59,503 nt of DNA. It comes from Eubacteriales bacterium (GTDB taxonomy: Bacteria > Bacillota > Clostridia > Oscillospirales > CAG-272). The notes beneath the pieces were generated by a model, which saw nothing but the letters and a program-made list of their open reading frames with translations, did not search any database and had not been told where the DNA came from. Below, in pieces: positions 2,506 through 15,528 of this stretch. The stretch lies in assembly GCA_045535205.1 (NCBI GenBank), contig JAZSLF010000141.1:1-59503 (forward strand), written 5' to 3'. A program made the translations under genes and the position numbers. Numbering within the stretch: position 1 is the stretch's first letter; every line of letters begins with the position of its first letter.

Positions 2506-2519
2506 CTGTATCTCTCCTT

Positions 2520-3437
2520 TTAGATATTCGAAATAATCGTTATCGTCACAATCCAAGCAACGATAGCAATAACAAGTGCGACAGTATTAACTCCGCCGTT
2601 TTTCTGAACGTACTGAGTTCTGTAGGGCTCACTCATTGTCTTTAGCTGATTTGCGTGTTTTTCAAGCCACTTCATGTATATATAGTTGCTGAATATACCC
2701 GCAACGATATATCCGCCCAAAGCCAACACCGATAAGAATGGAACACCGATCAAAGAAATTAAAAATAAACCGCCGAACATCCCGCATCCGTAGCCATACA
2801 TTTTACGGTATATAAACCAGAAGGGTGTAACCAAAAATGCCGCTGTGTTCCACGTGTTCTTTTTATTTTGCGATTTCATCTCTTGAAATTTTGATACATA
2901 ATAGTCCTTGTTAGCACCGATCAACACCTCTACGTCGGGATCAATGACGGTACTCGCTTGTTGACTGTAAGCATTATGATCGTATGAGCTCGTATTCTGC
3001 TGATACTGCGTTGTATTCTGCTGATACTGCGGAGTGTATGCCGACTGAGAGGTGCCGTTTTGCTGAGTATAAGCGTAAGGATCCGTATTAGCAGGGTTTG
3101 ATTGAGTACAAACGGGAGCAGCCGAGGGCTCTTTCAACCGATTGCCGCATCGACTGCAGAACGCAGAATCACCCGAGTACTTTGTACCGCATTTGCTGCA
3201 ATAAATTACTGAAGCCGCAGAATCATCCTCGTAGATAAGCTCCGTGGCGGTAACAGTATCGGAAACACCGCCCGCAGCCTTTATGGTTCCGGTACAGCCG
3301 AAGGTGGTACAGCCTTGATTTTCTACCCAACAGTCCTTATGATGAGGCATATCACAGTTGCTGCATACAACAATGTCATCATTTTCTTTAAATTCAGTTT
3401 TGCAAAAAGGACATATCTTTCCAAAATATATGCTCAT
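2520..3437 (-). CDS. RING-like (prokaryotic RING/treble-clef) + zinc-ribbon + multi-TM protein (RING-1)
   Basis: The N-terminus CPFCKTEFKENDDIVVCSNCDMPHHKDCWVENQGCTTFGC has C-x2-C...C-x2-C..HH..C...C..C cross-brace spacing. A zinc ribbon CSKCG...FCSRCG follows, then a Q/Y/T-rich linker. The C-terminus has 3 hydrophobic helices and looks DUF2628-like (FWFIYRKMYGYG). Confidence 0.8.
   Translation of the reverse strand: MSIYFGKICPFCKTEFKENDDIVVCSNCDMPHHKDCWVENQGCTTFGCTGTIKAAGGVSDTVTATELIYEDDSAASVIYCSKCGTKYSGDSAFCSRCGNRLKEPSAAPVCTQSNPANTDPYAYTQQNGTSQSAYTPQYQQNTTQYQQNTSSYDHNAYSQQASTVIDPDVEVLIGANKDYYVSKFQEMKSQNKKNTWNTAAFLVTPFWFIYRKMYGYGCGMFGGLFLISLIGVPFLSVLALGGYIVAGIFSNYIYMKWLEKHANQLKTMSEPYRTQYVQKNGGVNTVALVIAIVAWIVTITIISNI
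2992..3031. repeat. Tandem 21-bp repeat x2 inside the RING-1 linker
   Basis: GTATTCTGCTGATACTGCG occurs at 2992-3010 and 3013-3031. It encodes the QYQQNT duplication in the low-complexity linker. Confidence 0.85.
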
Positions 3438-3438
3438 T

Positions 3439-4578
3439 TCAGTTATCCTCGCCGTTTGTGTTATCGGAAGGCTCTCCGTTATCGAAATCGCCGTTGTTTA
3501 CCTTGTTATCATCTTTCTGATTGCTGTCGGCATCGTCAGCATTACCGTCTGAAGCGCCGTCAATATTTGAATTACCGCTTTCATCTGCGTTTTGATCCGT
3601 ATTGCCGGTGTTTGTGTTAGTTCCCTGATTGGTGACTTCAGCTGTAGGATCTCCGTTTACGTTTTCGCCGTCGTTTGCCGCTTCGTTTGAAGAAGCATCG
3701 ATCTCGCCGAGGCTTTCGTCAGTTGATTCTTGGAGCTCTTTGAGGGAGTTTTCAGCCTGTTCAAGCTCATTTTCAAGCGCTGAGACCTTGGTCTGCAGAT
3801 TTGTCACCCTTTTATCAAGATTAGTGAAATTCTGATTAGCGGCTTCGATAAAAAGCTTTTGCTGCTGTTCAAGATTTTCGATCTTATTATGCTGACTTAT
3901 ATTCAAAACGGATAAAACGACTATCGAAACAACAAGAATTGCAATAATAAAGCTCTTTAAATTCAGCGAAGATTCGCTTGTTACCGAGCCGGCGTCGTCA
4001 GCCTCAACCTCTCCTTTGATCTTAGCACCCGTTTTATCAAACTTGAAAAAGCCTTTGCATCTTTCTATTTTACCGTTTATCCAGAAGTAAAAGCCTTCTA
4101 TATTTTGAATGGGGTCAACAACGTAAGCTATCTGATATTCTTCTTTGAAGAAGTTTTCCTGAATAAACTTATCGTATTCGGAAAGAAAGATGCCGAAGTT
4201 GGGGTGAGTATGGATCCAACCGACGATCTTCTGACCGGGATACTTTCTATCCATTTCCTTATGAACAAAGTCCCACGTTTCATGGGTGAATTTCAATGTG
4301 GTGGGAGTTGCTTCACAATATTTAGCTTCGATAAAACCCTTTATTATAATATTGGTTTTACCAAATTCTTCGATAACACTGCCGATAAGCATACCGCCGC
4401 TTTCGTTCGTGGTCTTATTTTGAGTAAACTTATGTATCTCGTTATACACCGGCTGAGATATATAAATATTTTTATTCTCCTCAACACGCTCTCCTATCGA
4501 CAGAATATTCTGAGGAAGAACGTTTTCGTTTGTCGGTACATTTTTTACACTCTTTTTTGAACTTTTTTTCTTTGCCAT
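3439..4578 (-). CDS. JAB/MPN (JAMM) metallopeptidase - TM - coiled coil - acidic low-complexity tail (JAB-A)
   Basis: The JAMM motif is HTHPNFGIFLSEYD. It is a close paralog of JAB-B (FTHETWDFVHKE.../FTHETWDYVHKQ...). A TM helix (FIIAILVVSIVVLSVLNI), a coiled coil and a D/N/G/E-rich tail follow. The ATG at 4578 (MAKKKSS) has a GGAG 8 nt upstream. The ORF-track GTG at 4587 overlaps the protease stop. Confidence 0.85.
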   Translation of the reverse strand: MAKKKSSKKSVKNVPTNENVLPQNILSIGERVEENKNIYISQPVYNEIHKFTQNKTTNESGGMLIGSVIEEFGKTNIIIKGFIEAKYCEATPTTLKFTHETWDFVHKEMDRKYPGQKIVGWIHTHPNFGIFLSEYDKFIQENFFKEEYQIAYVVDPIQNIEGFYFWINGKIERCKGFFKFDKTGAKIKGEVEADDAGSVTSESSLNLKSFIIAILVVSIVVLSVLNISQHNKIENLEQQQKLFIEAANQNFTNLDKRVTNLQTKVSALENELEQAENSLKELQESTDESLGEIDASSNEAANDGENVNGDPTAEVTNQGTNTNTGNTDQNADESGNSNIDGASDGNADDADSNQKDDNKVNNGDFDNGEPSDNTNGEDN

Positions 4579-4583
4579 ATTTA

Positions 4584-5507
4584 TCACTCCAATATATCAA
4601 TATCAAAATCCGTTCTTTCTCTCGGATCATATTTCAAGTTCAAATTTTTTCTTTTTTGAAACACCAGCATTATTATCAGAATAACGTTTATTGTTACAGA
4701 TCCGCACAATGCAACGATAAGGATCAGTTCCATTAACGGCATGGATTTCAAAACGTTCCAAACGTCTGTATAGGTTTCGTTGACGTCTTTGTCAAAAAAC
4801 TCGGCGGTATCTTCCGTTTCCGACTCGTACTCCTCCCCTGCACCGTCACGTGATAATACTTCGCAAACGTTACCGTTGGCATCGAGCTCTATGCCGAGTG
4901 ACTGAACGAACTCGCACACCGCTGTCATCGGTATAGCAAGACCTATACCCTCGCTGTCAGACATTTTAAGAGTATTTATGCCGATAACGTTACCCTCGTC
5001 ATTAAGAAGCGGACCGCCGCTGTTACCCTCGTTGACTGCGGCATCTGTCTGAATGTATTTGTATTTACCCACTTCTCTTTCCTTGGCGGAAATAACACCC
5101 TTTGTAAGAGTATATGCCATGCTGTTGGGAGCACCGACGGCATATACGTCGTCACCTGTATTCAGAGCGTCGGGATCCGCAACGGTGAGTGTTGGGAAAG
5201 AAGCATCCGCAACACCCAGAACAGCTATATCCTTATCGGCGTCATAACCGACCGTATAGGCAGGAAAGCTTTCTCCCGAATAAGCCGTCAGCACAACGTT
5301 ATCAACATCGTCTATCACGTGTGCATTCGTAACAACACAGTTTTCTCCAATGGCAAAGCCGCTGCCGAGTGAGAGTCCTGACGTTACGATAAAAACAGAA
5401 CTGTATTTTTCTTCCGCATTAAAACCGATTGCGCTTGAAGACAGCGGAAGGGCGAATAATACCGCCACCGCACAGATTATAGATATTACTGCTCTTTGCA
5501 GCTTCAC
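4584..5507 (-). CDS. Secreted trypsin-like (S1/HtrA-type core, no PDZ) serine protease with C-terminal TM anchor
   Basis: A signal peptide is present (MKLQRAVISIICAVAVLFALPLSSSA). The triad contexts are VTNAHVI, DKDIAVL and GNSGGPLL. The C-terminal helix is LMELILIVALCGSVTINVILIIMLVF. The start codon is GTG. Confidence 0.85.
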   Translation of the reverse strand: MKLQRAVISIICAVAVLFALPLSSSAIGFNAEEKYSSVFIVTSGLSLGSGFAIGENCVVTNAHVIDDVDNVVLTAYSGESFPAYTVGYDADKDIAVLGVADASFPTLTVADPDALNTGDDVYAVGAPNSMAYTLTKGVISAKEREVGKYKYIQTDAAVNEGNSGGPLLNDEGNVIGINTLKMSDSEGIGLAIPMTAVCEFVQSLGIELDANGNVCEVLSRDGAGEEYESETEDTAEFFDKDVNETYTDVWNVLKSMPLMELILIVALCGSVTINVILIIMLVFQKRKNLNLKYDPRERTDFDIDILE

Positions 5508-5538
5508 GATATTACTCGCCCCCTAATTATTATTTATT

Positions 5539-7437
5539 TTATTTTGTATTGAAAACCAGCACGGAGTTACCGATAGCAATAGCATCTCCCTGACGGAGAA
5601 TGTGTCTTGCGGTTCTCATGCCGTTAACAACGGTTCCCATCGGTGTTCCGCAGTCGTGGAGCACGTATTTGCTTCCTTCAAGTACAATGTCACAGTGGTG
5701 AGGTCCGACAAGCTTGTCCTTGAAAAGAACGATGGTGTTCTTGCCGTTATTACCGATACTTGTAGTTCCGGCAAATACAAGGTATTCCTTGCCTTCAAAC
5801 TCACCTCTGATAACCTTGAGCCAAGCCTGTTTTGCAAACTGTTCAAGAAGTCCTACACCAAGACCGATCAAGAGTCCCATGATGACGATCGCAACACCTC
5901 TGGCCACTACGTCGTTAGGAATAATGTCGCATATATAGTTGAACAGGAAGCCGCCGAGGAAGCCGCCTGCCAAGCCGCCGAGAGCACAGTAAAGCATTCT
6001 TTTCTTTTCGGGCTTAATAAGACCTACGGCAACACCGATGCCGAGACCCATGATCGCCCAGCCGAGACCACGGATAAACGCAGCCGCAAAATCGGAGGGA
6101 TCGTCGCCGAGCATCGACGCATACATCCATTGTGCCAAATATCCGCTGATAAAACCAAGACCGAGCGAGACACCCGCACCTATTGCGGCATATTTGATCG
6201 CCTTTTCCTTTGAACCGTAGAAGATACCTTCACCTAATCCGAGGAACAGTCCGATAAAGAGTGCAAGTACGCCGGACCACAACGCAGTGCTTAAACGTGT
6301 AACGTTAGCCAAAGCATCTTTCAGAGCCGAGTCACTCTCATGATATTCATATTGATATGAATTATAGAGAGCTTCGCTTGATCTGTCATCATAATCTGAA
6401 TAATCATCCAGATAACCCTTTGCTTCCGCTGTTGCATATTCGGTATACCAAAGCTCAAAAGCTGAGGAATTATCGGGATCATATTTATTCTTCTTGCAGA
6501 AATCTTCGTAAATATCGTATGCTTTATCAAAGGCTTTGTCTGCCTTGTTTTCATAGTCATAATAATCAGCCAGATAAGACTTGCCCATAAGATTTGCTAT
6601 AAATACGCTATTCACGTCACTTCCGCCGGTCATTTCGGTTATTGCAAAGCCAAGAATAGCGCCGATAAGCGCCCAAAGCAAACCTTTTACGAGAATGGTC
6701 TTAAAGTTGATCTTTCCGCCCTTGACCGTACCGCCGCTTGATACTGTCTGCATTCTTTGAGCAGTAGGAACGAACTCAATTCCCGCAAGTTCCTCGGCAG
6801 TTATTTCAAAATCGTTCTCCTCGGGCTTGTTTTCCGTTATAACAGGAGCAGGGGCATTAATTACTGACTCTGTACTGACAAGGGTCTCAGCCGCTTCTGC
6901 AGGCTGTTCTTCGGCGATAACTGCACCGTCGTCATCAAACAGATCTATTTCAACGGTATCCTTTGCAGAAGCATAGTCAGCAATATAAAGCTCTGCGTTG
7001 CCTACGGGGAAAAGATGCTTATTTTCCATAGCCCACTGTGCCGCTTCTGCAGAAAGAGGACTGTAGGAGTTCCATGACTTATACTGGATCATATCGCCGA
7101 TATTAATGATAATATCGCTCAAGGATTCACCTGCACCCCAAATATCACCGATACAGATCTGTCCGTCTCTGAAGTTCGGATGCCAGATAGGTGTAAGTAT
7201 TTTGCAGATCGGTTTATATCTCGGATATTCAGCATGAAGCGTGATCTCAACCTCATGCCGAGCAAGTGTTTCTATTCTTCCGTCGGGCAAAAGATAAATA
7301 CCGTTTACGAAATATGTAACGTGATATTTTTCGGGCGGTTCCTCTCCGATCGGAGTAACAATGATATTTCTATGACCTGTAAAATCTTTTCTGACCTGTT
7401 CCCAGTCAGAAGCAAGACGTCTCATTCTTGCTGTCAT
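5539..7437 (-). CDS. UBC-like E2 domain - 6 TM helices - FHA domain fusion protein
   Basis: The N-terminus is RRLASDWEQVRKDF...YPRYKPICKILTPIWHPNFRDGQICIGDIW. HPN at aa 86-88 and Cys95 match E2 active-site geometry. Six Gly-rich hydrophobic helices span about aa 245-525. The C-terminus is FHA-like (GNNGKNTIVLFKDKLVGPHHCDIVLEGSKYVLHDCGTPMGTVVNG...LRQGDAIAIGNSVLVF). The start ATG is 1 nt after the E1 stop, with RBS GAGGAGGG. Confidence 0.85.
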   Translation of the reverse strand: MTARMRRLASDWEQVRKDFTGHRNIIVTPIGEEPPEKYHVTYFVNGIYLLPDGRIETLARHEVEITLHAEYPRYKPICKILTPIWHPNFRDGQICIGDIWGAGESLSDIIINIGDMIQYKSWNSYSPLSAEAAQWAMENKHLFPVGNAELYIADYASAKDTVEIDLFDDDGAVIAEEQPAEAAETLVSTESVINAPAPVITENKPEENDFEITAEELAGIEFVPTAQRMQTVSSGGTVKGGKINFKTILVKGLLWALIGAILGFAITEMTGGSDVNSVFIANLMGKSYLADYYDYENKADKAFDKAYDIYEDFCKKNKYDPDNSSAFELWYTEYATAEAKGYLDDYSDYDDRSSEALYNSYQYEYHESDSALKDALANVTRLSTALWSGVLALFIGLFLGLGEGIFYGSKEKAIKYAAIGAGVSLGLGFISGYLAQWMYASMLGDDPSDFAAAFIRGLGWAIMGLGIGVAVGLIKPEKKRMLYCALGGLAGGFLGGFLFNYICDIIPNDVVARGVAIVIMGLLIGLGVGLLEQFAKQAWLKVIRGEFEGKEYLVFAGTTSIGNNGKNTIVLFKDKLVGPHHCDIVLEGSKYVLHDCGTPMGTVVNGMRTARHILRQGDAIAIGNSVLVFNTK

Positions 7438-7438
7438 T

Positions 7439-8629
7439 TCAATCCCTCCTCAATTCTTCAAATACTTCCGGCTCATCACCGGCAAATTCATAATAGATCG
7501 TATTCATTCCAACACGAACTCCGACAATGTGCAACAAAGGAATACCGATCTCAAACAGCGTTTTATCAAGAAAATCCTCAGTTCCGTTTACGGAGTGGAA
7601 GCTGTCAAAGGACATCTGATTTCCGCATTTTTCACAAGTGAGCATTTCGCCTTTAAGCTTATGCACAGGCATATAAAGCTCTTTATGTTCGCCGCAAGTA
7701 CATTTTCCGACAGCGGCAATATCTCTGTCAAACTCAACGACAGCCTTCTCGCCCAGCTCCGAACGGCCGACGCTGAGAAGCTCGGCAAGGGTCATGGTTC
7801 TGACAGACCAATCCTTTTCCACTATGTTAGTATAGGTGTCGTGACTCATGCAGTCTGCCTTCTCCTGATACTCTACAACGTAGGAATCGTGGGTCAGACC
7901 GTTAAATACGTAGCCCTTTCCTGCTAACGTAGGAAGCTCTCTGTCACTGTGAAGCAGCTTCAGCATCTCCTGCACCTGAATACCCGCAATAACAGATGAC
8001 GATGTGGGAGTTGTCGGTATCTTGCCCTCTGCCATCTGTTCATGTGTAAGCAGAGCGCAGGATTTTCTCTTGTTAATCAATCTCCAGTCTGTTTCCGTCA
8101 TGGTGCATTCATAGCACGCACCCTGACCGGGTATAAACACACGGGCAAATCCGTTTAAGGCTTCAATTGCTCCGTCTATCCAAGGCTTGTCCACCTTATA
8201 GCAGGACTGATTGATCGCAAGACGAGCCTCTCTGTTGTCAAGTCCGCCGAGAACTACGCTCATTCTGCGAAACACACCCAAACCGACATCGTCAATTATG
8301 TTTGCAATAAAAGCCTTAGCCTTGACGTCGGGATTGATCTCCATCGCCCTTTCAGATGCCACCTCGGCTTTGTATCTGCCTACGTCTTTTGCACGATATA
8401 AGACAGAACGTGTGAGGTTGGTATTTTCAATACCGTCCATATCAAATATAAGAATTTTTCCTATTCCAAGCAAGGCAAGGTTTTTTATAAGCTCATTACC
8501 GATCGCTCCTGCGCCCACGACCATGACCGTGGCATTGTTCAGGCGATCCTGATCCCACCACGGTATAAGTCTAAGCCTACTGTATCGGTCTTCTTCAAAA
8601 TCAGAATTGTTTAATTCAATGTTTTCCAT
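7439..8629 (-). CDS. E1-like ubiquitin-activating enzyme (ThiF/MoeB/UBA superfamily)
   Basis: The nucleotide loop is VMVVGAGAIGNE. Other superfamily motifs are FDMDGIENTNLTRS and GLDNREAR. The CYEC ... CEKCG zinc site is present. The candidate catalytic Cys sits in NKRKSCALL. An extra C-terminal domain of about 120 aa is in the UFD position. Confidence 0.85.
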   Translation of the reverse strand: MENIELNNSDFEEDRYSRLRLIPWWDQDRLNNATVMVVGAGAIGNELIKNLALLGIGKILIFDMDGIENTNLTRSVLYRAKDVGRYKAEVASERAMEINPDVKAKAFIANIIDDVGLGVFRRMSVVLGGLDNREARLAINQSCYKVDKPWIDGAIEALNGFARVFIPGQGACYECTMTETDWRLINKRKSCALLTHEQMAEGKIPTTPTSSSVIAGIQVQEMLKLLHSDRELPTLAGKGYVFNGLTHDSYVVEYQEKADCMSHDTYTNIVEKDWSVRTMTLAELLSVGRSELGEKAVVEFDRDIAAVGKCTCGEHKELYMPVHKLKGEMLTCEKCGNQMSFDSFHSVNGTEDFLDKTLFEIGIPLLHIVGVRVGMNTIYYEFAGDEPEVFEELRRD

Positions 8630-8640
8630 CGCATCACCTA

Positions 8641-9372
8641 TTATTTGGCATTAGACAAGCTTCTCATTTTTACGATAAAATAGAATAAGAAGATAAGACC
8701 GATTGCGATAAGTAAATTTCCAAAGCCTGCAGCTACGATCTCAGCTAAAGCTCTGACGTTGTTGGCAGTCTGAGCCGCAGCATTCTGAATACCCGTATAT
8801 GCATCGCCGCCGTACGAACTTGCAGATTCATAAGCACCCGTATACTTTGAAAGAGTCGAAAAGCCTAAAATCATTGACACAATACTTGCGAGCATTCCGA
8901 ATATGCAGGGAATTCTGCCTTTGATTTTTTTCTTGGCTTTTTGGGGACTTTCGTCGGGAGCAACTGTGTATTTAGGGCCTGTGCTGTACGAGGGCGCCGC
9001 ATTATAATTGGGAGCGCTTGTCTGAGGAGCTGTCAGAGACGCACCGCACTTGCTGCAGAATAATTCTCCGTCATTTTCCGCATTTCCGCACTGTGAACAA
9101 ACTGCGCCTGCGGTGATCTCGGGCTGAAGACGAAGAACGTCGCCGTCTTTGATACCCGCTTCGCCGAGCGTCTGAGCTTCAAGAAGCTGACGGCCCGTTA
9201 CCTTATGTATGAATTTATAGCTGATGGGGTTGCCGTCGGGGCCAACTGAGGGAAGCTTGATCTTCTCAACAAGCTTTACCATGATAATCCCGCATTTAAT
9301 ATCGTCAGGCAAACCAACCTTCTGCTCTTTATTACCTGTTGCATCTACGATAACTACATTAACTTTTCCCAT
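8641..9372 (-). CDS. Ubiquitin-like beta-grasp domain - zinc ribbon - 2 TM protein (Ubl precursor candidate)
   Basis: Aa 1-89, KVNVVIVDATGNKEQKVGLPDD...TLGEAGIKDGDVLRLQPEITAG, shows a Ub/YukD-like pattern and ends in LRL...AG (Gly89 = 9106-9108). CSQCG...FCSKCG follows. Two hydrophobic helices are IPCIFGMLASIVSMILGF and LAEIVAAGFGNLLIAIGLIFLFYFIV. RBS AGGAGAAAC. Confidence 0.75.
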   Translation of the reverse strand: MGKVNVVIVDATGNKEQKVGLPDDIKCGIIMVKLVEKIKLPSVGPDGNPISYKFIHKVTGRQLLEAQTLGEAGIKDGDVLRLQPEITAGAVCSQCGNAENDGELFCSKCGASLTAPQTSAPNYNAAPSYSTGPKYTVAPDESPQKAKKKIKGRIPCIFGMLASIVSMILGFSTLSKYTGAYESASSYGGDAYTGIQNAAAQTANNVRALAEIVAAGFGNLLIAIGLIFLFYFIVKMRSLSNAK

Positions 9373-9525
9373 TTTGTTTCTCCTGCTTTTTTAATAGATT
9401 TTATAATAGTACATTCCTTAATGAATGTTATGTTTGAAAAATAATAAGTTCAAGAGGAACCCAAAGCGCCGCATTTTCCAAGCGGTGCCCGTAAACTGAG
9501 TTCTGTTTTTAATATTTCATTGAAA

Positions 9526-9864
9526 TTAAATTTTTTGTCCGCACTTTGAACAAAAAGCCTGACCGCTTCGCAGCGCCGCACCGCATCTAGAGCAGAATTT
9601 CGGTGCTGAGTTCTTAGGACTGCCGCATTTTGCGCAGAATAACTCTCCTGCACCAAAAACGTAACCGCATCTGACACAAACGTCTGAAGTGCCACTTTCA
9701 GCTTCATGATCTCGTTCCAGACAGCCAAAGGTCGTACACCCGTCATTTTCACGCCAACAGTCTATATGATGCGGAATATTACAAGCGGGACATACTTTGA
9801 TTTCTTCATCCTCTTTTATCGGGGTTTTACAAAAAGGACAAATCTTTCCAACATAATTTTCCAT
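9526..9864 (-). CDS. Soluble RING-like (prokaryotic RING/treble-clef) protein with two zinc ribbons (RING-2)
   Basis: CPFCKTPIKEDEEIKVCPACNIPHHIDCWRENDGCTTFGC is a paralog of the RING-1 N-terminus. CVRCG..FCAKCG and FCSRCG..FCSKCG follow. No TM segment. RBS GGAGG. Confidence 0.8.
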   Translation of the reverse strand: MENYVGKICPFCKTPIKEDEEIKVCPACNIPHHIDCWRENDGCTTFGCLERDHEAESGTSDVCVRCGYVFGAGELFCAKCGSPKNSAPKFCSRCGAALRSGQAFCSKCGQKI

Positions 9865-9875
9865 ATAAACCTCCG

Positions 9876-10916
9876 TTAGTTGATTACGGGAAGACCGCTG
9901 ACAATGCTTTCCACGCTGTCACTTGCATCTGAAACCAACGTAGCCATCTCGCTTATCGTATCAAGCGCATCGTTTACACTTTTAGAAGAATAATATCCCG
10001 TACCGTAATAAAGATCACCCAATTCTGTTTCTATAGTTGAAAGTGCAGAGATATATTTTACACACAATTCGTCACCGGTAGAGACTTCCTTTGCGGCAGC
10101 TACGGCATTTTCAGCACTCGTATGTGCGTATCCTGCGTACAGCTTTGTAACGTAATAGGATGATGACTTTGCAGCACTTGTTACATTTTCAATACACTCC
10201 GAACAATCGCTCATCGAATTGAGAACGCATCTACTGACACCGTTGTACTTTACATAGTCGGAAAGCTCTAATACTTGCGATATGTAACGCCTGACGTTTG
10301 TACCATCAGAGGAGTTTATTCTCAACAATCCACCGATAACGTCGTACATTTCATACTTCTCAAGAAGCTCCGTATTAACAAGCCAACCCGACAGCTCGAC
10401 ATACTGGTTATCGGAAACCTCGTCTACGAACGCATCTATGATCTTGTCTCTGAATAACATCTGCCCGATGGGAGTCAACGAATTATAATTCGATTCAATG
10501 ATCGTATATGACGGATCTGAAGATTTTATTTCATCAATTATGCTTTCTGCCATTCCGTTTAAATGAACATATCCGCCGATGGCAGCTGCCGCAAGAATTC
10601 CGACAATTATTAATATTACGACAAGTGCCTTTGATTTTGACTTTTTCTTCTTTTCTTGTTGTACGATGTTTTGATTGAATTGTGAAATAGCATCAGACAC
10701 CTGAGGAGAGTTCGGCTGCGGTGAATAGGTCTCTCCCTTCTTGTGACCGCAATTAGTACAAAACACCTTGTTTTCCGTCAATTCAGTTCCGCAAAATGCG
10801 CATACAACGATGCCATTTCCGTTGCTTTCGGGTGCTGACTGATTATCAGCTGTCTGAGATACAGCATCTGACACCTCAGAGGTTTGATCCATTACCAAAT
10901 TTTTTTCGTCATTCAT
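9876..10916 (-). CDS. Zinc-ribbon - TM - extracytoplasmic domain protein (unknown function)
   Basis: The N-terminal ribbon is CAFCGTEL..FCTNCGHK. The TM helix is ALVVILIIVGILAAAAIGGYV. I do not recognise the ectodomain of about 220 aa. RBS AAGGAGA. Confidence 0.7.
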   Translation of the reverse strand: MNDEKNLVMDQTSEVSDAVSQTADNQSAPESNGNGIVVCAFCGTELTENKVFCTNCGHKKGETYSPQPNSPQVSDAISQFNQNIVQQEKKKKSKSKALVVILIIVGILAAAAIGGYVHLNGMAESIIDEIKSSDPSYTIIESNYNSLTPIGQMLFRDKIIDAFVDEVSDNQYVELSGWLVNTELLEKYEMYDVIGGLLRINSSDGTNVRRYISQVLELSDYVKYNGVSRCVLNSMSDCSECIENVTSAAKSSSYYVTKLYAGYAHTSAENAVAAAKEVSTGDELCVKYISALSTIETELGDLYYGTGYYSSKSVNDALDTISEMATLVSDASDSVESIVSGLPVIN

Positions 10917-10933
10917 ATTTTCTCCTTATTCTT

Positions 10934-11599
10934 TTATCCTTGAGGCAAACACGTGCCGCAAGGTTCATATTCTCCTGTTTCAAATTGTTCTACGGTTAAT
11001 CTGCTTGTATTACTTTTGTTTTTTACGTGAATACAGTCTGCCTGATGATACTTGTTACCGGTCTCGGTAATCACGTAATCCCCATAGTATTCCTTATCCC
11101 TTGTAAGCCATCCGACTCCGATCAGCCCAGCAATAAGAATCAGGCACACTGCGCTCAGCCAAACTTTATTTTTATTAACGAAAAACGCTCCTTTGTCAAT
11201 TATTGACGGATTAGTCAAGCTGTAGACAAACTCGTTTGACTCAGCCTCTTGCTGAACGTCACGTCCCAGATAGGTGTTTTCCTCGATATGTCCGCAAAAA
11301 ATATGACCTTCCTCATGAAGCAAGACATTAAACTTTTCATCTGCCGACAGATCCTCATGCACAAAAACAAGTCTGTTTTTAGCGTCTGCATAAGTGAAAC
11401 CCTTTCTCTCCGAAACGAGACGGTCTAAGTTTAACCGTTCAATAATCAACGCCACATCTTCATCGTTAAATATGGAGTTGAATTCAATTATCGTATAACC
11501 TTGAGATGCGATAATTCTTTTCAGTCTTTCCGCAGTCGGACAGATAAGACCGTACTTTTTTCTGAAAGCTTTAGCGGCTTTTTTTCCCGATACACTCAT
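10934..11599 (-). CDS. ImmA/IrrE-family zinc metallopeptidase with TM helix and C-terminal H/C metal-binding motif
   Basis: HEXXH lies in LLHEEGHIFCGH. The TM helix is VWLSAVCLILIAGLIGVGWL. The C-terminal motif is YHQADCIHV...YEPCGTC. The start overlaps the XRE stop (ATGA). Confidence 0.75.
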   Translation of the reverse strand: MSVSGKKAAKAFRKKYGLICPTAERLKRIIASQGYTIIEFNSIFNDEDVALIIERLNLDRLVSERKGFTYADAKNRLVFVHEDLSADEKFNVLLHEEGHIFCGHIEENTYLGRDVQQEAESNEFVYSLTNPSIIDKGAFFVNKNKVWLSAVCLILIAGLIGVGWLTRDKEYYGDYVITETGNKYHQADCIHVKNKSNTSRLTVEQFETGEYEPCGTCLPQG

Positions 11600-12207
11600 A
11601 ATTTACCGTTCCCGCTTCCCTTAACATTTTTCAGCGCCCGCTTCACAGCCTCGTCATCCTTGGTTATACCCTTGCTAAACGATCTGCCGTCGAAAGACTT
11701 TATCACAGCCTCACCCGGAAGATTACTGCACCGTGCATACTCCACCATTATCAACGTGCGTATTGCGTGAATGGCTTGTTCGTCGAGAATATCTTTTATG
11801 TTTTCGATTGAAATTCCGACAAGCCGTTCAAAGCTCGTAAAGTCTTCGCTTTCGTTTATACGATCTACCAGCTCTGAGGGAAATGCCGATATGGCTCTGA
11901 TCATTTTGTGTGTCGATTGATTGTAATCGAAAAAAAAGATCAAGGAAAGATACGTATTCCACGACATTTTTCTGTCTTTACGCTCGATCCAACCATAGTT
12001 TTGTCTTGAAATACCTATTATCTTTGCGAGTGCTTCTTGAGATATGTCAGCCTTCGCTCTCAACATCGGTAATTCGTCTGTAAGAATGTCTATGTATCTG
12101 TCTTTTTCTTCGGGTGTGATCTGCCATCTTTCTTTACTGTCCAAGATTTTCATCTCCTTCCCCGTTTTTTCGTAGAGTATTTTACTATACGAAAATGTTT
12201 GTTTCAT
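11596..12207 (-). CDS. XRE-family helix-turn-helix regulator
   Basis: The HTH is ISQEALAKIIGISRQNYGWIERKDRKMSW. The ATG at 12207 overlaps the recombinase stop (ATGA) and reads through IR-L. An alternative start is ATG 12153 (MKILDSKERW), preceded by GGGGAAGGAG. Confidence 0.8.
   Translation of the reverse strand: MKQTFSYSKILYEKTGKEMKILDSKERWQITPEEKDRYIDILTDELPMLRAKADISQEALAKIIGISRQNYGWIERKDRKMSWNTYLSLIFFFDYNQSTHKMIRAISAFPSELVDRINESEDFTSFERLVGISIENIKDILDEQAIHAIRTLIMVEYARCSNLPGEAVIKSFDGRSFSKGITKDDEAVKRALKNVKGSGNGKL
12167..12201. repeat. IR-L: 35-bp perfect inverted repeat flanking the recombinase gene (candidate recombination core site)
   Basis: TTTTCGTAGAGTATTTTACTATACGAAAATGTTTG is the exact reverse complement of 13301-13335. 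It contains an internal dyad, TTTTCGTAGAGTA / TACTATACGAAAA (13-nt arms, 1 mismatch), like the paired arms of tyrosine-recombinase core sites. Confidence 0.9.
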
Positions 12208-13157
12208 TCGTAATTCAGTTTTTTCAGATTTTGCCGTTTCATCTCAAAAGAGGAATGTACGTATCTGTTAAGAGTTATATTTACGTTTGAATGTCCGAGC
12301 GTTTCACTTAATGTTTTTACGTCAACACCAACCTCTACACACCGTGTTGCAAACGTATGCCGCAAGGTGTGAAAGCTAACGTTTTCTATTGAAAGCTTTT
12401 GCATTATCTTATTAAATCTGTTTTCCATTGTTCTCGGTTCGATAAATCTGTCGGCATCTCCCGTTAAAATATATGCTCCCTTTCTGTATTCTGCTGCCGC
12501 CAGTCTCTCCATTATAAAATCCTGTATAGGAATTTCTCTCACAGAGCTTTTGCTTTTGGGCGCTGTTATTGAAATATATGTTTTGTTGTTATCGTTGTCC
12601 CGCTTATGCTGAAGTCTCTGCATTGTTTTTGTTATGGTTACTTTTTTCGTCTCCATATCAAAATCCTCTATATTCAGAGCACACAGTTCCCCTATTCTTA
12701 TACCCGTATAGAAGGCAATAAGTATTCCAAGCTCAGTAAAACCCGTTTGCGTCATCAGATATTGATTTACAATAGCTTGTTCTTTGTGCGAAAGCACCTT
12801 TAATTTAACGTCAGGCTGTTTTACGGATAACAAGGTTGGGTTACAAGAAAGAGAATATCCGAGTGTTTCTGCATAATGTAGAATTGCTTTTATTATGATC
12901 GCTATGTCGCAAACGGTTTTTTGTGACAGTCCTCCGCTGTAATCGAGCCGTCCGTCTGTGGAAAAACCGATTATTGTTTCTTCTAATTTTAATAACGTTA
13001 AATCTTCTATCAGCTCGTTGCCAAGCTTTGCTTCAATATGATTTTTTAACAAATTATAATAATGAATATAGGTTGATCTTTTGGTGGTTGTTTCTTTCTT
13101 TTTGATCCATAGCTCAGCTACGTTTCTGAAATATATTTGATTATTTGAAAATACCAT
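12204..13157 (-). CDS. Tyrosine site-specific recombinase (phage-integrase family, short form without arm-binding domain)
   Basis: An N-terminal SAM-like core-binding region is present. The catalytic contexts are TGIRIGELCAL (Arg), HTLRHTFAT (HxxR) and GHSNVNITLNRYVH (His/Tyr). 317 aa. RBS AGGAGG. Confidence 0.9.
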   Translation of the reverse strand: MVFSNNQIYFRNVAELWIKKKETTTKRSTYIHYYNLLKNHIEAKLGNELIEDLTLLKLEETIIGFSTDGRLDYSGGLSQKTVCDIAIIIKAILHYAETLGYSLSCNPTLLSVKQPDVKLKVLSHKEQAIVNQYLMTQTGFTELGILIAFYTGIRIGELCALNIEDFDMETKKVTITKTMQRLQHKRDNDNNKTYISITAPKSKSSVREIPIQDFIMERLAAAEYRKGAYILTGDADRFIEPRTMENRFNKIMQKLSIENVSFHTLRHTFATRCVEVGVDVKTLSETLGHSNVNITLNRYVHSSFEMKRQNLKKLNYE

Positions 13158-13256
13158 ATAAACCTCCTGTAAAGCATATCTGATTTTGAATAATGATTTT
13201 ATTTTCCAACGATTTCGTCAAAAAAATTTAAAATTCAACATAATATCGAAAAAACA

Positions 13257-13285
13257 TTGACAAATATGATACCATTTTGTATAAT
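13257..13285 (+). promoter_or_regulatory. Consensus sigma-A promoter inside the IR-bounded segment, facing outward (away from the operon in this orientation)
   Basis: TTGACA (13257-13262), exactly 17 nt, TATAAT (13280-13285). The predicted transcription start is near 13292, so the transcript begins just before IR-R. Confidence 0.7.
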
Positions 13286-13300
13286 AATTGAGTAACAACG

Positions 13301-13335
13301 CAAACATTTTCGTATAGTAAAATACTCTACGAAAA
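13301..13335. repeat. IR-R: 35-bp perfect inverted repeat partner
   Basis: CAAACATTTTCGTATAGTAAAATACTCTACGAAAA is the reverse complement of 12167-12201. Confidence 0.9.
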
Positions 13336-13336
13336 T

Positions 13337-13375
13337 AACCCCAGGCTATCGAAAACAGCTTGAGGTTATTTTTTT
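13337..13375 (+). terminator. Rho-independent terminator-like hairpin directly after IR-R
   Basis: AACCCCAGG-13 nt-CTTGAGGTT gives 8 of 9 pairs including one G-U, followed by A and T7. Confidence 0.55.
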
Positions 13376-13385
13376 GCAAAAAAAT

Positions 13386-13424
13386 AAGCGATATGCTTCA
13401 AAAACCGAGCATATCGCTTTTTTA
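13386..13424. terminator. Bidirectional terminator (ends the yugP-like gene on the minus strand)
   Basis: AAGCGATATGCT-10 nt-AGCATATCGCTT is a 12-bp perfect stem flanked by an A-run and a T-run. Confidence 0.85.
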
Positions 13425-13466
13425 AAACTTATCCGTTCAAAAATTTTGAGGGTATTAGGGGAACTT

Positions 13467-14171
13467 TTACCTTCTTCGTCTGTTTACCAACAGGAGAAGT
13501 CTGAGGAGCTGAGCGAGGGAGACCGCAAGTGCCGCAACGTAGGTCATGGCGGCGGCAGATAAAACCTTTTTCATTTGTCCCAGCTCTTCGCTGTCGAGAA
13601 CATTATAGGTCTCCACCGCTTCGAGAGCACGGCGGCTTGCATTGAACTCCGTCGGCAGAGTCACAAGCTGAAAAATTGTTGAAAGAGAGAATGCAATTAC
13701 TCCAAGATAAGAAATGGCAAGGAACTGCTCTCCGTAATATGACAAAAAGAAGCCTAAAATAATGAGGGGGACAGCAAGGCGTGAGCCGATATTTGTAACA
13801 GGGATGATGGCAGCTCTCACCTTAATGGGAAAATAATTTGTCGCATGCTGAACGGCGTGGCCTGCTTCGTGGGCGGCAACACCGATGGCGGCGGCTGAAA
13901 TGCTGTCGTGAGTAGCCTCTGAAAGACGGATAACGTTGCTCTTGGGGTCATAATGGTCTGTGAGCTTACCCGACACTCTTTCAATTCTTACGTTGTGAAG
14001 TCCGTTGGCATCAAGGACACGGCGGGCAGCCGCAGCTCCCGTAAAGCCTCTCTTTGACGGGATCTTAGAATACTTGTTGAATACCGAATTAACTCTCGCC
14101 TGAGCTATAAGTGCAAGAATTACGGCAGGCAGCACAAGTACGAAATAAGACATATCTGTATACCAGAACAT
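13467..14171 (-). CDS. YugP-like putative neutral zinc metallopeptidase (membrane)
   Basis: HEAGHAVQH (HEXXH), an N-terminal TM helix and C-terminal TM helices. 234 aa, typical of the family. Confidence 0.8.
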   Translation of the reverse strand: MFWYTDMSYFVLVLPAVILALIAQARVNSVFNKYSKIPSKRGFTGAAAARRVLDANGLHNVRIERVSGKLTDHYDPKSNVIRLSEATHDSISAAAIGVAAHEAGHAVQHATNYFPIKVRAAIIPVTNIGSRLAVPLIILGFFLSYYGEQFLAISYLGVIAFSLSTIFQLVTLPTEFNASRRALEAVETYNVLDSEELGQMKKVLSAAAMTYVAALAVSLAQLLRLLLLVNRRRR

Positions 14172-14250
14172 AATAATATTCCTTTCGCAATACTGTTTGT
14201 CAAAAAAAATGTTTGTTTATATTATTAATGCCCAAAAAAATTTTTTTCGC

Positions 14251-14775
14251 TCAATCAATGATAACAAAATTATCTTTTCTCGGCTTTGCCGCCGGGTAAT
14301 CTCCGTCTGCATAACCTAAAATACAGTTGCCGATACCAGCGTAGTTTGAATCAAGCCCCCATTTCTCAAGAAGCGCTTTACCCTCTTCCGTCTCGAAGGT
14401 CTCTCTTGCACGGTGTATCCAGCAGGAAGCAACACCGATGGAATGTGCCGCATTCATAAGATTTCCCATCACAAGACTTCCGTCTTCAATATATGTATGT
14501 ACTCTTTTGTCAGCAAGGACAACTACTACGGTAGGTGCACCGTAAAAGGGATCGGCCGCACCCGGCTGAACCTTAGCGGCACTGTTGAGCCTTCTCAGTA
14601 TTTCAAAGGTCTCACCCTGCTGTACGACTACCATCACGGTACTTTGTCTGTTCATTCCCGAAGGGGCATATTTACCCGCTTCAAGTATTATGTCAAGCTC
14701 TTCCTTCGTTATCTGCTTTTGGCTGTAGGAACGAACACTTCTTCTTTCGCACATATTCTTTATTATGTCGTTCAT
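14251..14775 (-). CDS. Nitroreductase-family oxidoreductase
   Basis: The N-terminus is RRSVRSYSQKQITKEELDIILEAGKYAPSGMNRQS, and the length is 174 aa. Confidence 0.8.
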   Translation of the reverse strand: MNDIIKNMCERRSVRSYSQKQITKEELDIILEAGKYAPSGMNRQSTVMVVVQQGETFEILRRLNSAAKVQPGAADPFYGAPTVVVVLADKRVHTYIEDGSLVMGNLMNAAHSIGVASCWIHRARETFETEEGKALLEKWGLDSNYAGIGNCILGYADGDYPAAKPRKDNFVIID

Positions 14776-14853
14776 ATTGTATCCTCCGTAACGTTTTCTA
14801 TTATTTTACCATATAATATGAACTTTTACAATAGATATGCAAAAGAGAAAAGA

Positions 14854-15528
14854 TCAACCTATAAAGCTCACAAGTGTTTTTTCGATAAGCTCATGTCCCG
14901 CCTGGGTCGGATGGATGCCGTCGACACAAAGAAGGCGGGGAAAATCGTGTCTCAAAAGAAAATCCCTTCTGAGATCAATAAATTCACAGCCAAGCTCACG
15001 TGCAAGGTTTTCAACTAAATGGCTGTAGTATTCCTGCCAGCGAAACAGCATACTTTCGTCACCGAGCCATCCTAAAATATTTTCGTAGCTTAGATTTCTG
15101 CTTATCCAGTTCATGTATTTTCTGCAGTCGATGGGAACGAGTGAGGTCATGGCAACAGTTGCACCCTTTTTCAAGGCACTCTTTACCGCTTCGCTGTAGG
15201 TTGCGATAAATTTTTCGGGTTCAATATGAGGAAGGTGCTTTTCGCTTGGAGCCTCCGAAATATTCTTCCACTCATAATCACAGTCGTTCCCGCCGAATTC
15301 AAGAATAACGAGAGTTGATCTGTCACAGCTTTCAAGCTTTCTCTCAAGAGCACTTTTACCCTTTTCGATGGTTGCTCCTATTCTTGAATTGTTTCTCACT
15401 TCAATTCCTTTTTCTTTCAGCTTTTCAAAGCCGTAGCCCTCTCTCAGCTTGTAAGTATTCGTTTCCTCGTCATACATGACTCCTCGAAGAACGGAGTCCC
15501 CGTATATGTCTATTTTTTTAAAGTCCAT
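14854..15528 (-). CDS. SGNH/GDSL-family hydrolase
   Basis: Block I is IYGDSVLRG, block III is EFGGNDCD, and block V is DGIHPT. Confidence 0.8.
   Translation of the reverse strand: MDFKKIDIYGDSVLRGVMYDEETNTYKLREGYGFEKLKEKGIEVRNNSRIGATIEKGKSALERKLESCDRSTLVILEFGGNDCDYEWKNISEAPSEKHLPHIEPEKFIATYSEAVKSALKKGATVAMTSLVPIDCRKYMNWISRNLSYENILGWLGDESMLFRWQEYYSHLVENLARELGCEFIDLRRDFLLRHDFPRLLCVDGIHPTQAGHELIEKTLVSFIG

Follow-up and report, generated by a model that had tools for sequence, protein, structure and literature searches.

A probable self-contained promoter inverton with its own tyrosine recombinase upstream of a Ubl operon in Clostridia

In the Hin/hix system of Salmonella flagella, and in its Gin, Cin and Pin relatives, a recombinase gene and an outward promoter lie together in a segment of about 1 kb with short inverted sites at its ends. 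Hin itself, a serine recombinase, makes a 2-bp crossover and requires a Fis-bound enhancer. Promoter inversion also underlies ON/OFF phase variation in fimS of E. coli (FimB/FimE), in Bacteroides (Tsr/Mpi) and in Clostridioides difficile (RecV), where FimB/E, Tsr and RecV are tyrosine recombinases. The locus described here, positions 12167-13335 of a 59,503-nt contig from a Clostridia bacterium (the whole stretch analysed, hereafter the window), resembles Hin/hix in its layout, in which one orientation would drive the adjacent operon and the other would not. Its enzyme differs from Hin in being a tyrosine recombinase, and its sites consist of 9-11-nt arms with a 7-nt centre; it is thus Hin-like in layout but not a member of the serine invertases. 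From the fimS, Bacteroides and RecV systems it is set apart by the position of the recombinase gene, which lies inside the segment whereas theirs lies outside an invertible element of 0.2-0.3 kb, and by a cargo other than fimbriae, capsule or flagella. We estimate at roughly 85% the probability that 12167-13335 is a self-contained promoter inverton upstream of an operon for bacterial protein tagging of the ubiquitin-like (Ubl) kind. Most likely this 1.17-kb segment acts as a flip switch that turns the operon up or down.

The segment is bounded by two perfect inverted repeats of 35 nt, IR-L (12167-12201, adjoining the operon) and IR-R (13301-13335, distal), neither of which is assigned to a strand. 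They are 100% complementary, as the sequence-only reading had stated, with 1099 nt in between. Only about 1e-12 such repeats would be expected by chance in 59.5 kb (our own arithmetic), and a search of the window for the 29-nt core with up to three mismatches finds just these two copies, against none in 100 shuffles. IR-L consists of the outer arm TTTTCGTAGAG (12167-12177), the centre TATTTTA (12178-12184, with the variable core TTTT at 12180-12183) and the inner arm CTATACGAAAA (12185-12195), after which the identity extends for another 6 nt (TGTTTG). IR-R consists of the inner arm TTTTCGTATAG (13307-13317), the centre TAAAATA (13318-13324) and the outer arm CTCTACGAAAA (13325-13335). The two centres are asymmetric and stand in inverted orientation. 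Each copy had been described earlier as holding two 13-nt inverted arms; paired arms are indeed present, but they differ at one position within a copy (GTAGAG vs GTATAG), and the family as a whole is described better by 9-11-nt arms around a 7-nt TA-NNNN-A centre than by arms of 13 nt separated by 3 nt.

The assignment of both repeats as recombination sites draws, besides their perfect match and the shuffles, on a comparison of 18 IR pairs. Across these the arms are kept as TTCGTAGAG / CTATACGAA. The central 4 nt are the same within the pair in 17 of the 18, and 13 distinct 4-mers are found between loci. Such variation between loci, together with matching within pairs, is what is expected of crossover spacers. 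A mismatched pair at one related locus (L022; related loci and contigs are referred to by L numbers) was judged a false pairing, since the GGCA partner is located at the end of L010, another contig of the same MAG. As the exact 29-mer had no match in representative genomes, these were searched with a degenerate site pattern; the site was absent from the viral contigs searched.

The only real gene between the repeats, as already noted from the sequence, encodes a short-form tyrosine recombinase of 317 aa (12204-13157, minus strand; Pfam PF00589 and alignment A2). The match to PF00589 (Phage_integrase) is strong (5.7e-26, 91.8 bits against a cut-off of 27.1), and a SAM-like N-domain is matched as well. 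The catalytic residues R154, K201, H263, R266, H289 and Y299 are all present and fall in invariant columns of alignment A2, and the set aligns to the motifs of Tn1549 Int. The reading frame is full-length and preceded by the ribosome-binding site AGGAGG 7 nt upstream. Pfam and NCBIfam gave only tyrosine-recombinase families, which argues against a serine invertase, and by sequence the enzyme is not of the FimB/E type either: the invertase models of NCBIfam match faintly (NF007371 with 4.5e-7 and 29.6 bits against a cut-off of 222, NF007370 with 27.2 bits against 221).

Among solved structures, Tn1549 Int (6EN0) comes closest, with E = 7e-18 over residues 144-314. With Tn1549/Tn916-type integrases (PDB 6EN0, 6EMY, 6EMZ) the recombinase shares the catalytic domain and the active-site motifs. 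In those integrases, which possess an N-terminal arm-binding domain, the element that is inserted and excised has directly oriented ends, whereas the sites in the window are inverted and would give inversion. Relatives of 376 aa carry an N-terminal extension of about 60 residues that the 317-aa protein does not have. This extension may be an arm-binding domain, by its resemblance to Tn916 Int; it gave no credible Pfam match. The earlier statement that the recombinase has no arm-binding domain consequently holds for the missing extension, the identity of that domain being putative. A clade of 319-aa homologues with 71-76% identity is in every case linked to the Ubl operon, and the closest relatives for which inversion is demonstrated share only 72% recombinase identity. 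Plasmid homologues reach at most 34% identity, which, together with the viral contigs lacking the site, leaves a phage or plasmid origin without support. Exact-product look-ups for the recombinase, for the M78 gene of the operon and for the Zn-peptidase gene on the far side of IR-R returned no identical gene product on record.

Inside the segment, 15 nt from IR-R, an outward consensus promoter of the sigma-70 type (TTGACA-17-TATAAT, 12/12 match) is located at 13257-13285 on the plus strand, exactly as read earlier. Its block CATTGACAAAT.T.A.ACCATTTTGTATAATA is invariant in 8 lineages, against a mean column identity of 82% (alignment A3), and an outward near-consensus promoter is present in 15/15 IR-bounded segments examined. 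Back to back with it stands a weak promoter-like site on the minus strand (TTGACG-17-AATCAT, 13193-13221, matching the consensus at only 9/12 positions), which could drive the recombinase gene, its conservation being too low to call. RNA folding reveals two terminator-like hairpins with a U-run behind each at 13333-13425 on the plus strand (~13333-13378 and ~13382-13425; -42.7 kcal/mol, z = -9.3). A simple terminator scan had missed them, but they bear out the proposal that the promoter at present reads into two terminators. The hairpins are predicted to stop transcription from the outward promoter in this orientation and to insulate the segment from the convergent Zn-peptidase gene. An Rfam search over 10500-15000 gave only a sub-threshold sRNA match on the terminators (23.8 bits against 100), which was rejected.

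Inversion would place the promoter on the minus strand at 12245-12217, some 64 nt ahead of ATG 12153, and the coordinates calculated earlier for this state (12217-12245) are correct. The distance from IR-L to that start codon is only 13 nt, too short to house another promoter for the operon; operon transcription therefore crosses the site, while internal promoters may exist deeper in the 10.8-kb operon. No terminator was found from the recombinase stop to the XRE start, and the present orientation may therefore correspond to low read-through expression rather than to a strict OFF state. The ON/OFF switch of the sequence-only reading is thus borne out in that both orientations occur in orthologues (see below), whereas its "OFF" may be a "low" if transcripts of the recombinase gene run on into the operon. 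The activities of promoter and recombinase are themselves predicted from sequence.

The first gene outside IR-L encodes an XRE-type HTH protein of 185 aa (11596-12153, minus strand; ATG 12153, ribosome-binding site GGAAGGAG), with its start codon 13 nt from the repeat. Matches to HTH_31 and HTH_3 are slightly under the curated cut-offs (HTH_31 25.0 bits against 27). A related inverton with other cargo is followed by an HTH gene whose product shares 49% identity with the protein (E = 2e-25). It had been proposed that the XRE N-terminus differs between the orientations, with a start at ATG 12207 in the present one. The ATGA overlap of the recombinase stop with this codon does exist, but homologues start at the equivalent of ATG 12153, and L003, L044 and L060 have an in-frame stop inside the IR; the 18-residue extension is therefore window-specific and probably an artefact of ORF calling.

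The XRE stop is overlapped by the gene for an M78/ImmA-IrrE-like metallopeptidase with an HEEGH motif (10934-11599, minus strand; Peptidase_M78 1.6e-4, 21.9 bits against a cut-off of 22), of which orthologues with 75-77% identity occupy the same position. The two probably form an XRE/protease regulator pair, with putative cleavage of the XRE protein. In combining an HTH protein with an HExxH M78-like peptidase in overlapping reading frames, the pair resembles ImmR/ImmA, DdrO/IrrE and CapH/CapP, at Pfam matches that are sub-cut-off. CapH/CapP pairs head immune operons and respond to DNA damage (bioRxiv 10.1101/2022.04.27.489752; PMC13228613). Unlike in those systems, a probably invertible promoter precedes the pair in the window and would put a stochastic layer on top.

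The cargo operon follows at 1369-10916 (minus strand), as assigned by Pfam matches, and L001, L003 and L056 carry the same gene set. Its order is a Zn-ribbon protein, a Prok-RING protein, a YukD-type Ubl (with a Zn-ribbon and a hydrophobic C-terminal tail), a ThiF-type E1, a UQ_con E2 fused to FHA, an HtrA-like serine protease, a JAB protein, a second Prok-RING protein and a JAB + LysM protein. Neighbourhoods with Prok-RING, YukD, E1, E2 and JAB were predicted by Iyer, Burroughs and Aravind (PMC1779556). With these, and with the Bil/Bub systems of the Corbett and Sorek laboratories, the operon has Ubl, ThiF-type E1, UQ_con E2, JAB and Prok-RING in common, and YukD, RING and FHA go unmentioned in the Bub/Bil Ubl paper. 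PADLOC, run on ten operon proteins, gave no system match; there were domain-level matches for E1, JAB and protease, and the XRE protein was matched as 'control protein'. By this measure the Ubl operon does not appear to be a catalogued defence system. Our literature search found no report of phase-variable control of a Ubl operon, and the site motif appeared in no paper found.

Both orientations are found among orthologous Ubl loci, and pairs of recombination sites are present in the relatives as well. In the ON-like loci (L001/L002, L059 and L056/57) the consensus promoter faces the XRE gene across the IR, and the recombinase gene runs divergently from it; a promoter reading into XRE is seen in L001, L059, L056 and L034. 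The OFF-like orientation of the window recurs in L003/4, L044, L060/61, L062 and L041. Whatever the other flank, the position of the cassette relative to the XRE start is the same in all lineages. Decay is also observed: in L056/57 the recombinase is truncated and the distal IR is gone, L034 no longer carries a recombinase, and L050-55 combine a 265-aa recombinase with a single site.

One strain background is represented in both states. L044 comes from run SRR27608078, and L045-L048 come from other samples of the same study (runs SRR27608106, -057, -069 and -064). These four contigs are 100.000% identical to L044 after its inversion in silico between the TATTTAA centres (over 3075, 1601, 1600 and 1270 nt), whereas against the real L044 their alignment breaks into two pieces, with a strand switch at the IR; they cover one of the two new junctions. 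An outer-arm polymorphism (GATTAG vs GTAGAG) remains with the flank, as a crossover in the site centre predicts. The exact stretch shared by the two IR copies of this series is 19 nt, shorter than the assembler k-mer (which we take to be k = 31 for the Logan assemblies), so the inverted junction is not an artefact of graph collapse. Contigs comprising the interior only have been recovered too. L005 (1170 nt; ERZ15610584) is 100% identical to L003 7817-8986 with both ends just inside the arm mismatch, and L058 (1187 nt; SRR17418338) starts and ends in a perfect 27-nt IR; these are the expected signature of mixed orientation within one sample. Related loci and perfectly matching inverted contigs hence support the invertible promoter cassette that had been suggested for the Ubl operon.

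The following mechanism would account for these observations. The enclosed tyrosine recombinase would bind the conserved arms of both inverted core sites, and strand exchange in the short central region (TATTTTA) would flip the 1.1-kb interior. In the present orientation the strong promoter would fire away from the operon into the two terminators, giving an OFF or low state in which the Ubl operon is reached solely via read-through of the recombinase gene. In the flipped state the promoter, ~64 nt upstream of the XRE start codon, would read via IR-L into the whole operon (ON), and the recombinase gene would point outward. The locus combines inverted sites around a short segment (35 nt, 1099 nt apart), a predicted internal promoter that faces the neighbour in one orientation only, and a crossover region that is matched within the pair and framed by conserved arms, whereas both orientations in one strain were seen for a relative (L044 vs L045-48 at 100% identity). 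From this we infer that the copy in the window still flips, that the enclosed recombinase is probably the responsible enzyme, and that orientation would set the expression level of the Ubl operon.

It might be argued that the switch is a fossil, having inverted in the past of the lineage and now being fixed with the promoter facing away. The decayed relatives (L056/57, L034 and L050-55) show that such a fate occurs, and the other orientation was seen in relatives only. Against this, the two 35-nt copies show no mismatch, the promoter agrees with the consensus at every position, and the recombinase frame is full-length with all catalytic residues and a good ribosome-binding site, so that we regard a fossil as unlikely. 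A purely transcriptional explanation, in which the palindromic 29-nt cores are XRE operators, control is exerted by XRE and M78, and the recombinase is an unrelated integrase remnant, is in our opinion very unlikely. Inversions were observed with junctions at the site centres, and these sites also bound invertons that lack an adjacent HTH gene (L018, L042 and mini-invertons beside NusG paralogues). Moreover, a centre that varies between loci yet is matched within the pair is a signature of recombination and not of an operator. What speaks for operators is the near-palindromic site 13 nt from the XRE start, the HTH gene that is first outside the IR also in loci with unrelated cargo, and the established role of XRE + M78 pairs as regulators of immune operons (bioRxiv 10.1101/2022.04.27.489752; PMC13228613). 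Dual use of the site, as operator and as crossover, is possible.

Alternatively, the segment could be a small mobile element with terminal IRs or att-like ends, the two orientations being independent insertions. The cassette is AT-rich (34% GC vs 43% in the flanks), related cassettes precede very different cargo genes, the closest solved relative of the recombinase is the integrase of a conjugative transposon, and conjugation genes are found beside the locus in some lineages. Nonetheless, independent insertion is hard to reconcile with a position relative to the XRE start that is identical in every lineage, or with opposite-orientation contigs that are 100% identical in flank and interior; the viral contigs are without the site and plasmid homologues stay below 34% identity. 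An IS or transposon with terminal IRs is not indicated, given the single IR pair in the window, the fixed position before XRE and the lack of a target-site duplication (the flanks end in CCCCGTT on one side and begin with TAACCCC on the other). Neither is an element bounded by attL and attR, as the asymmetric centres are inverted and the product in relatives is an inversion. We consider independent insertion highly improbable. A mobile origin of the cassette is plausible, but bears on its history rather than on its present function.

The preferred reading, a promoter inverton, adds the segment to the known invertons, among which a complete E1/E2/RING/JAB/Ubl cargo is unusual. A survey of hCom2 (PMC11892184) reports an inverton 'group 139' of ~255 nt, almost all from class Clostridia, that lies near a tyrosine recombinase of 'invertase group 35' and for which orientation changes were measured in culture. 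By size alone, it agrees with the 163-262-nt invertons without recombinase in the site family of the window; the survey describes no recombinase inside the inverton and no Ubl operon cargo. The Clostridia family to which the window's site belongs comes in two formats, with and without an internal recombinase. The data provide a junction-level record of this widespread family and of its site, TTCGTAGAG-TANNNNA-CTATACGAA, a definition that can help to annotate phase-variable loci in metagenomes. The finding also accounts for the fragmentation of assemblies into 1.2-1.5-kb pieces at such loci.

A Ubl operon behind a flip switch would be expressed bistably in the population and is likely costly or under fluctuating selection. 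To our knowledge, full Ubl/E1/E2/RING/JAB operons are known mostly from computational surveys, and functions have been assigned to few types only (Bil, Bub and CBASS-linked). The related loci offer comparable natural alleles, some locked ON (L056/57 and L034) and others with the promoter facing away. More tentatively, and at slightly less than even odds, the IR-promoter-recombinase-IR cassette and its following HTH gene may be a portable plug-in module for phase variation that gut and rumen Clostridia have placed before many cargo operons. Here it would lay stochastic ON/OFF control, on top of an XRE/M78 damage-type regulator, over a complete Ubl/E1/E2/RING/JAB cascade of eukaryote-like ubiquitination. 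The module is possibly derived from conjugative-transposon-type integrases, Tn1549 Int being the closest solved relative. If this holds, the function of the Ubl system would be costly and subject to fluctuating selection, as might be the case for phage defence or envelope remodelling, and the natural locked-ON and locked-OFF alleles would help to find it.

We put the probability that positions 12167-13335 form an invertible promoter, flipped by a recombinase, that switches the ubiquitin-like (Ubl) operon at roughly 0.85. The two bracketing copies proposed by the sequence-only reading (IR-L, 12167-12201, on the operon side and IR-R, 13301-13335, on the distal side) indeed form an inverted repeat of 35 nt that is 100% complementary, with 1099 nt between them. 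A search of the 59.5-kb window for its 29-nt core, with up to 3 mismatches permitted, returns these two copies and no others (0 occurrences in 100 shuffles). Each copy is a near-palindrome, TTTTCGTAGAG-TATTTTA-CTATACGAAAA, with arms unlike at one position; the 13-nt arms described earlier are literally present in the window, but the wider site family favours shorter arms and a 7-nt TA-NNNN-A centre. The arms (12169-12193, 13309-13333) contain an octamer, TTCGTATA / TATACGAA, which we take to be shared with the 13-bp arms of loxP. This likeness is probably a coincidence, because Cre is absent from the PDB matches of the recombinase.

The sole credible gene between the repeats encodes, as had been stated, a tyrosine recombinase (12204-13157, minus strand; 317 aa; Phage_integrase 5.7e-26, SAM-like N-domain). 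Residues R154, K201, H263, R266, H289 and Y299 are invariant among its short and long relatives in the protein alignment (A2), and the best solved relative is the integrase of the conjugative transposon Tn1549 (6EN0, E = 7e-18). The Xer, integron and FimB/E-type invertase models of NCBIfam all match far below their cut-offs; judged by its sequence, the enzyme is a tyrosine recombinase outside these subfamilies. Relatives of 376 aa carry an N-terminal extension of ~60 residues that the window recombinase lacks (A2). This extension has no Pfam match and presumably resembles the arm-binding motif of Tn916 Int.

The outward promoter reported inside the segment (TTGACA-17-TATAAT, 13257-13285, plus strand, 15 nt from IR-R) matches the consensus at 12/12 positions. 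A simple terminator scan detected no terminator downstream of it; RNA folding showed two strong hairpins, each with a U-run behind it (-42.7 kcal/mol, z = -9.3), so the statement that this promoter presently reads only into two terminators holds. Beyond the terminators on this far side lies a convergent Zn-peptidase gene. At the other end the XRE start codon (ATG 12153, minus strand) is just 13 nt beyond IR-L, which is too short for a promoter, so that every transcript entering the operon has to pass through IR-L. From the recombinase stop to the XRE start, folding yields the IR hairpin alone, without a subsequent U-run. The operon would thus be reachable by read-through from the recombinase gene only, and given this possible read-through the present state is termed OFF or low. 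At a locus with 53% recombinase identity (L041 380-500), a terminator-like hairpin and T-run lie between recombinase stop and IR and would, when the promoter faces away, shield the operon from such read-through; no hairpin of this type is present in the window. In the Ubl-linked clade the promoter block CATTGACAAAT.T.A.ACCATTTTGTATAATA is invariant across 8 lineages in the DNA alignment of promoter regions (A3; mean column identity 82%), and all 15 IR-bounded segments examined have a near-consensus outward promoter close to one IR.

In the mechanism that we propose, the recombinase would bind the arms of both sites, and strand exchange in the TATTTTA centre would flip 12178-13324. In the present orientation the promoter would fire into the terminators; in the flipped one it would occupy 12245-12217 (minus strand) with ATG 12153 lying 64 nt downstream, a distance comparable to the 77 nt seen in an observed ON allele (contig L001).

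A protein search yields a tight clade of 319-aa recombinases with 71-76% identity to that of the window. The same Ubl operon adjoins every full-length member fetched with flanks, and the opposite flank varies by lineage. Comparison of these orthologous loci shows that both orientations are present. The contigs L003/L004, L044, L060/61, L062 and the more distant L041 are arranged like the window (recombinase co-directional with the operon, promoter pointing away); in L001/L002, L059 and L056/57 the recombinase is divergent and TTGACA-17-TATAAT faces the XRE start codon across the IR, which is exactly the inverted allele that had been predicted. From these orthologues and the anatomy of the locus we infer that the window copy would flip likewise and that its orientation would set operon expression.

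The surroundings of these loci differ. On the far side of L001 (9057-16960) and L044 (1-3694) an Endonuclease_NS_2 gene is followed by genes for a MobL relaxase, a VirD4/TraG-like coupling protein and Toprim proteins, and in these lineages the operon and switch appear, from gene content, to be carried by an integrative element of conjugative or mobilisable type. The far side in the window holds ordinary chromosomal genes (Zn-peptidase, nitroreductase, GDSL lipase). L056 5626-6741/L057 is 99.1% identical to inverted L044 until recombinase codon ~235 and divergent beyond; the recombinase is truncated, the distal IR is lost and the promoter is locked ON. At L034 1861-2023 the promoter reads into XRE, one good and one degenerate site lie 163 nt apart and the recombinase is deleted, and in L050-L055 the recombinase is truncated to 265 aa with one site at most.

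Inversion junctions are found in one strain background, in which an identical recombinase (P0009) occurs on six contigs of one run series. The 8.2-kb contig L044 has the window-like orientation. When it is inverted in silico between its two TATTTAA centres, four contigs, each from another run, match it at 100.000% along their whole length: L045 (3075 nt), L046 (1601 nt), L047 (1600 nt) and L048 (1270 nt). Aligned with L044 as assembled, each falls into two pieces with a strand change at the IR. The outer arms of this lineage are unlike (TTTCGATTAG on the endonuclease flank, TTTCGTAGAG on the XRE side) and in the inverted contigs each remains with its own flank, which locates the exchange to the central or inner portion of the site. 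Exact identity between both IR copies extends over 19 nt at most, shorter than the 31-mer with which the Logan assemblies were presumably made, and therefore the junction is not a graph-collapse artefact. Of the two junctions that inversion creates, the four contigs span one; the second (promoter to XRE) is found in sister lineages. Their starts all lie within 3 nt, inside the promoter -10 region rather than the IR, likely a graph branch at an invariant 32-nt promoter block common to other cassettes in the same metagenomes.

Other contigs contain the interior only. L005 (1170 nt) is 100% identical to L003 7817-8986, with both ends just inside the single arm mismatch, and L058 (1187 nt), source of the closest relative of the window recombinase (76%), is bounded exactly by perfect 27-nt IRs on both sides. 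Such contigs are expected of a de Bruijn graph if either end of the interior connects to two alternative continuations, which is the case where both orientations coexist in a sample. They lend support but do not decide the matter, as a pair of strains that differ in their flanks would have the same effect. For ~25 of ~105 clusters of the 376-aa relatives (P0015-P0120) the longest contig measures 1.31-1.49 kb, equal to the distance from IR to IR in their cassettes. This suggests that the effect is widespread and that assembly breaks at these invertons are routine.

The degenerate site pattern TTCGTANAGTANNNNACTATACGAA matches 22 stretches of representative genomes and 16 of metagenome contigs. 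Every one of these genomes is a MAG or isolate from Clostridia, with Oscillospiraceae, Lachnospiraceae, Acutalibacteraceae and Ruminococcus among them. Paired sites either lie 1.42-1.50 kb apart and enclose a 376-aa recombinase homologue, or lie 163-262 nt apart and enclose no gene. Over 18 non-redundant pairs the arms are constant (TTCGTAGAG / CTATACGAA); the four central bases come in 13 versions among loci, yet are equal within 17 of the pairs. The exception with unmatched centres (L022) is probably no true pair, because the matching site terminates a different contig of that MAG. Conserved arms around a variable but pair-matched centre fit what strand-exchange homology predicts for a tyrosine-recombinase core site.

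Cassettes of 1.42-1.46 kb with the 376-aa homologue and an outward consensus promoter (L027 1496-2955, L018 4686-6119, L042 2790-4208, L037 8700-10148, L013 3351-4784) precede surface or secreted proteins, among them SLH and cohesin (L027), BspA-type LRR (L018), CsgG/LpoB-like lipoprotein (L042) and transglutaminase-like (L037) cargo. Gene-less segments of 200-260 nt with a promoter-like site (L021 7003-7246, L026 1512-1765, L031 244-496, L014 2780-2980, L015 813-1014) have the GAG arm inward, a polarity opposite to that of the recombinase-carrying class. In three Lachnospiraceae loci a NusG paralogue neighbours such a mini-inverton (Pfam NusG, 7.7e-8 to 2.9e-6), recalling the UpxY/LoaP-type regulators that head polysaccharide operons. 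In a defined gut community surveyed in 2025, one inverton group of ~255 nt was dominated by Clostridia and linked to a group of tyrosine recombinases (PMC11892184); it may be the recombinase-less class of the present site family.

It might be argued that the palindromes serve as an operator only. This is contradicted by the inversions observed in relatives, by the presence of the same sites at loci without an HTH neighbour and by the spacer covariation, since a pair-matched variable centre is not expected of a repressor operator; a dual use as operator and crossover site is possible. That the segment is a mobile element with terminal repeats is likewise contradicted: its position beside the XRE start is fixed in all lineages, there is no target duplication, it is single-copy in the window, and flanks are 100% identical around opposite orientations. 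Nonetheless, its low GC content (34% for 12167-13335, against 43% in the operon and 45% in the right flank) and the transposon type of its integrase suggest mobile ancestry. We consider it improbable that the window copy is a fossil that has lost flipping, as its IRs and promoter are perfect and its enzyme intact, whereas truly decayed relatives (L056/57, L034, L050-L055) look different.

As in Hin/hix, the segment that flips itself carries both the recombinase and an outward promoter, though the window enzyme is a tyrosine recombinase. The promoter invertons of FimB/E, Tsr and RecV use the same chemistry, but these enzymes are encoded outside their element and are not close relatives of the window recombinase. 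Our literature search found no paper containing the site motif, and no report of an invertible promoter ahead of a ubiquitin-like operon.

The cargo operon comprises 11 minus-strand genes and begins 13 nt past IR-L. An XRE-type HTH protein (11596-12153, RBS GGAAGGAG) and an M78/ImmA-like metallopeptidase are followed by a Zn-ribbon protein, a Prok-RING protein, a YukD-type Ubl with Zn-ribbon and hydrophobic C-terminal tail, a ThiF-type E1, a UQ_con E2 fused to FHA, an HtrA-like protease, a JAB peptidase, a second Prok-RING protein and a JAB + LysM protein. PADLOC gives no system-level match for this operon. The alternative XRE N-terminus from ATG 12207, suggested earlier, is window-specific: homologues start at the equivalent of 12153, and L003, L044 and L060 have an in-frame stop inside the IR. 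Identity to L001/L003 is 92% for the E1 (window 7439-8629), 71-72% for the recombinase and 47-50% for XRE; the regulatory end of the locus would thus either evolve much faster than the enzymatic core or have been exchanged. The Pfam matches of XRE and M78 are both slightly under cut-offs. This pair resembles ImmR/ImmA, DdrO/IrrE and CapH/CapP modules (10.1101/2022.04.27.489752; PMC13228613), and by analogy may add a second, signal-responsive control layer at the operon head.

An HTH gene is the first gene outside the IR despite unrelated cargo (window 11596-12153, L027 3027-3317, L013 3012-3305). Behind the related inverton with SLH/cohesin cargo, it is 49% identical to the XRE N-domain (79 residues, E = 2e-25). 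This makes it possible that the HTH protein is part of the switch and not of its cargo, as a conserved component such as a regulator of orientation. The cargo of the switch itself, a ubiquitin-like operon, is unusual and informative.
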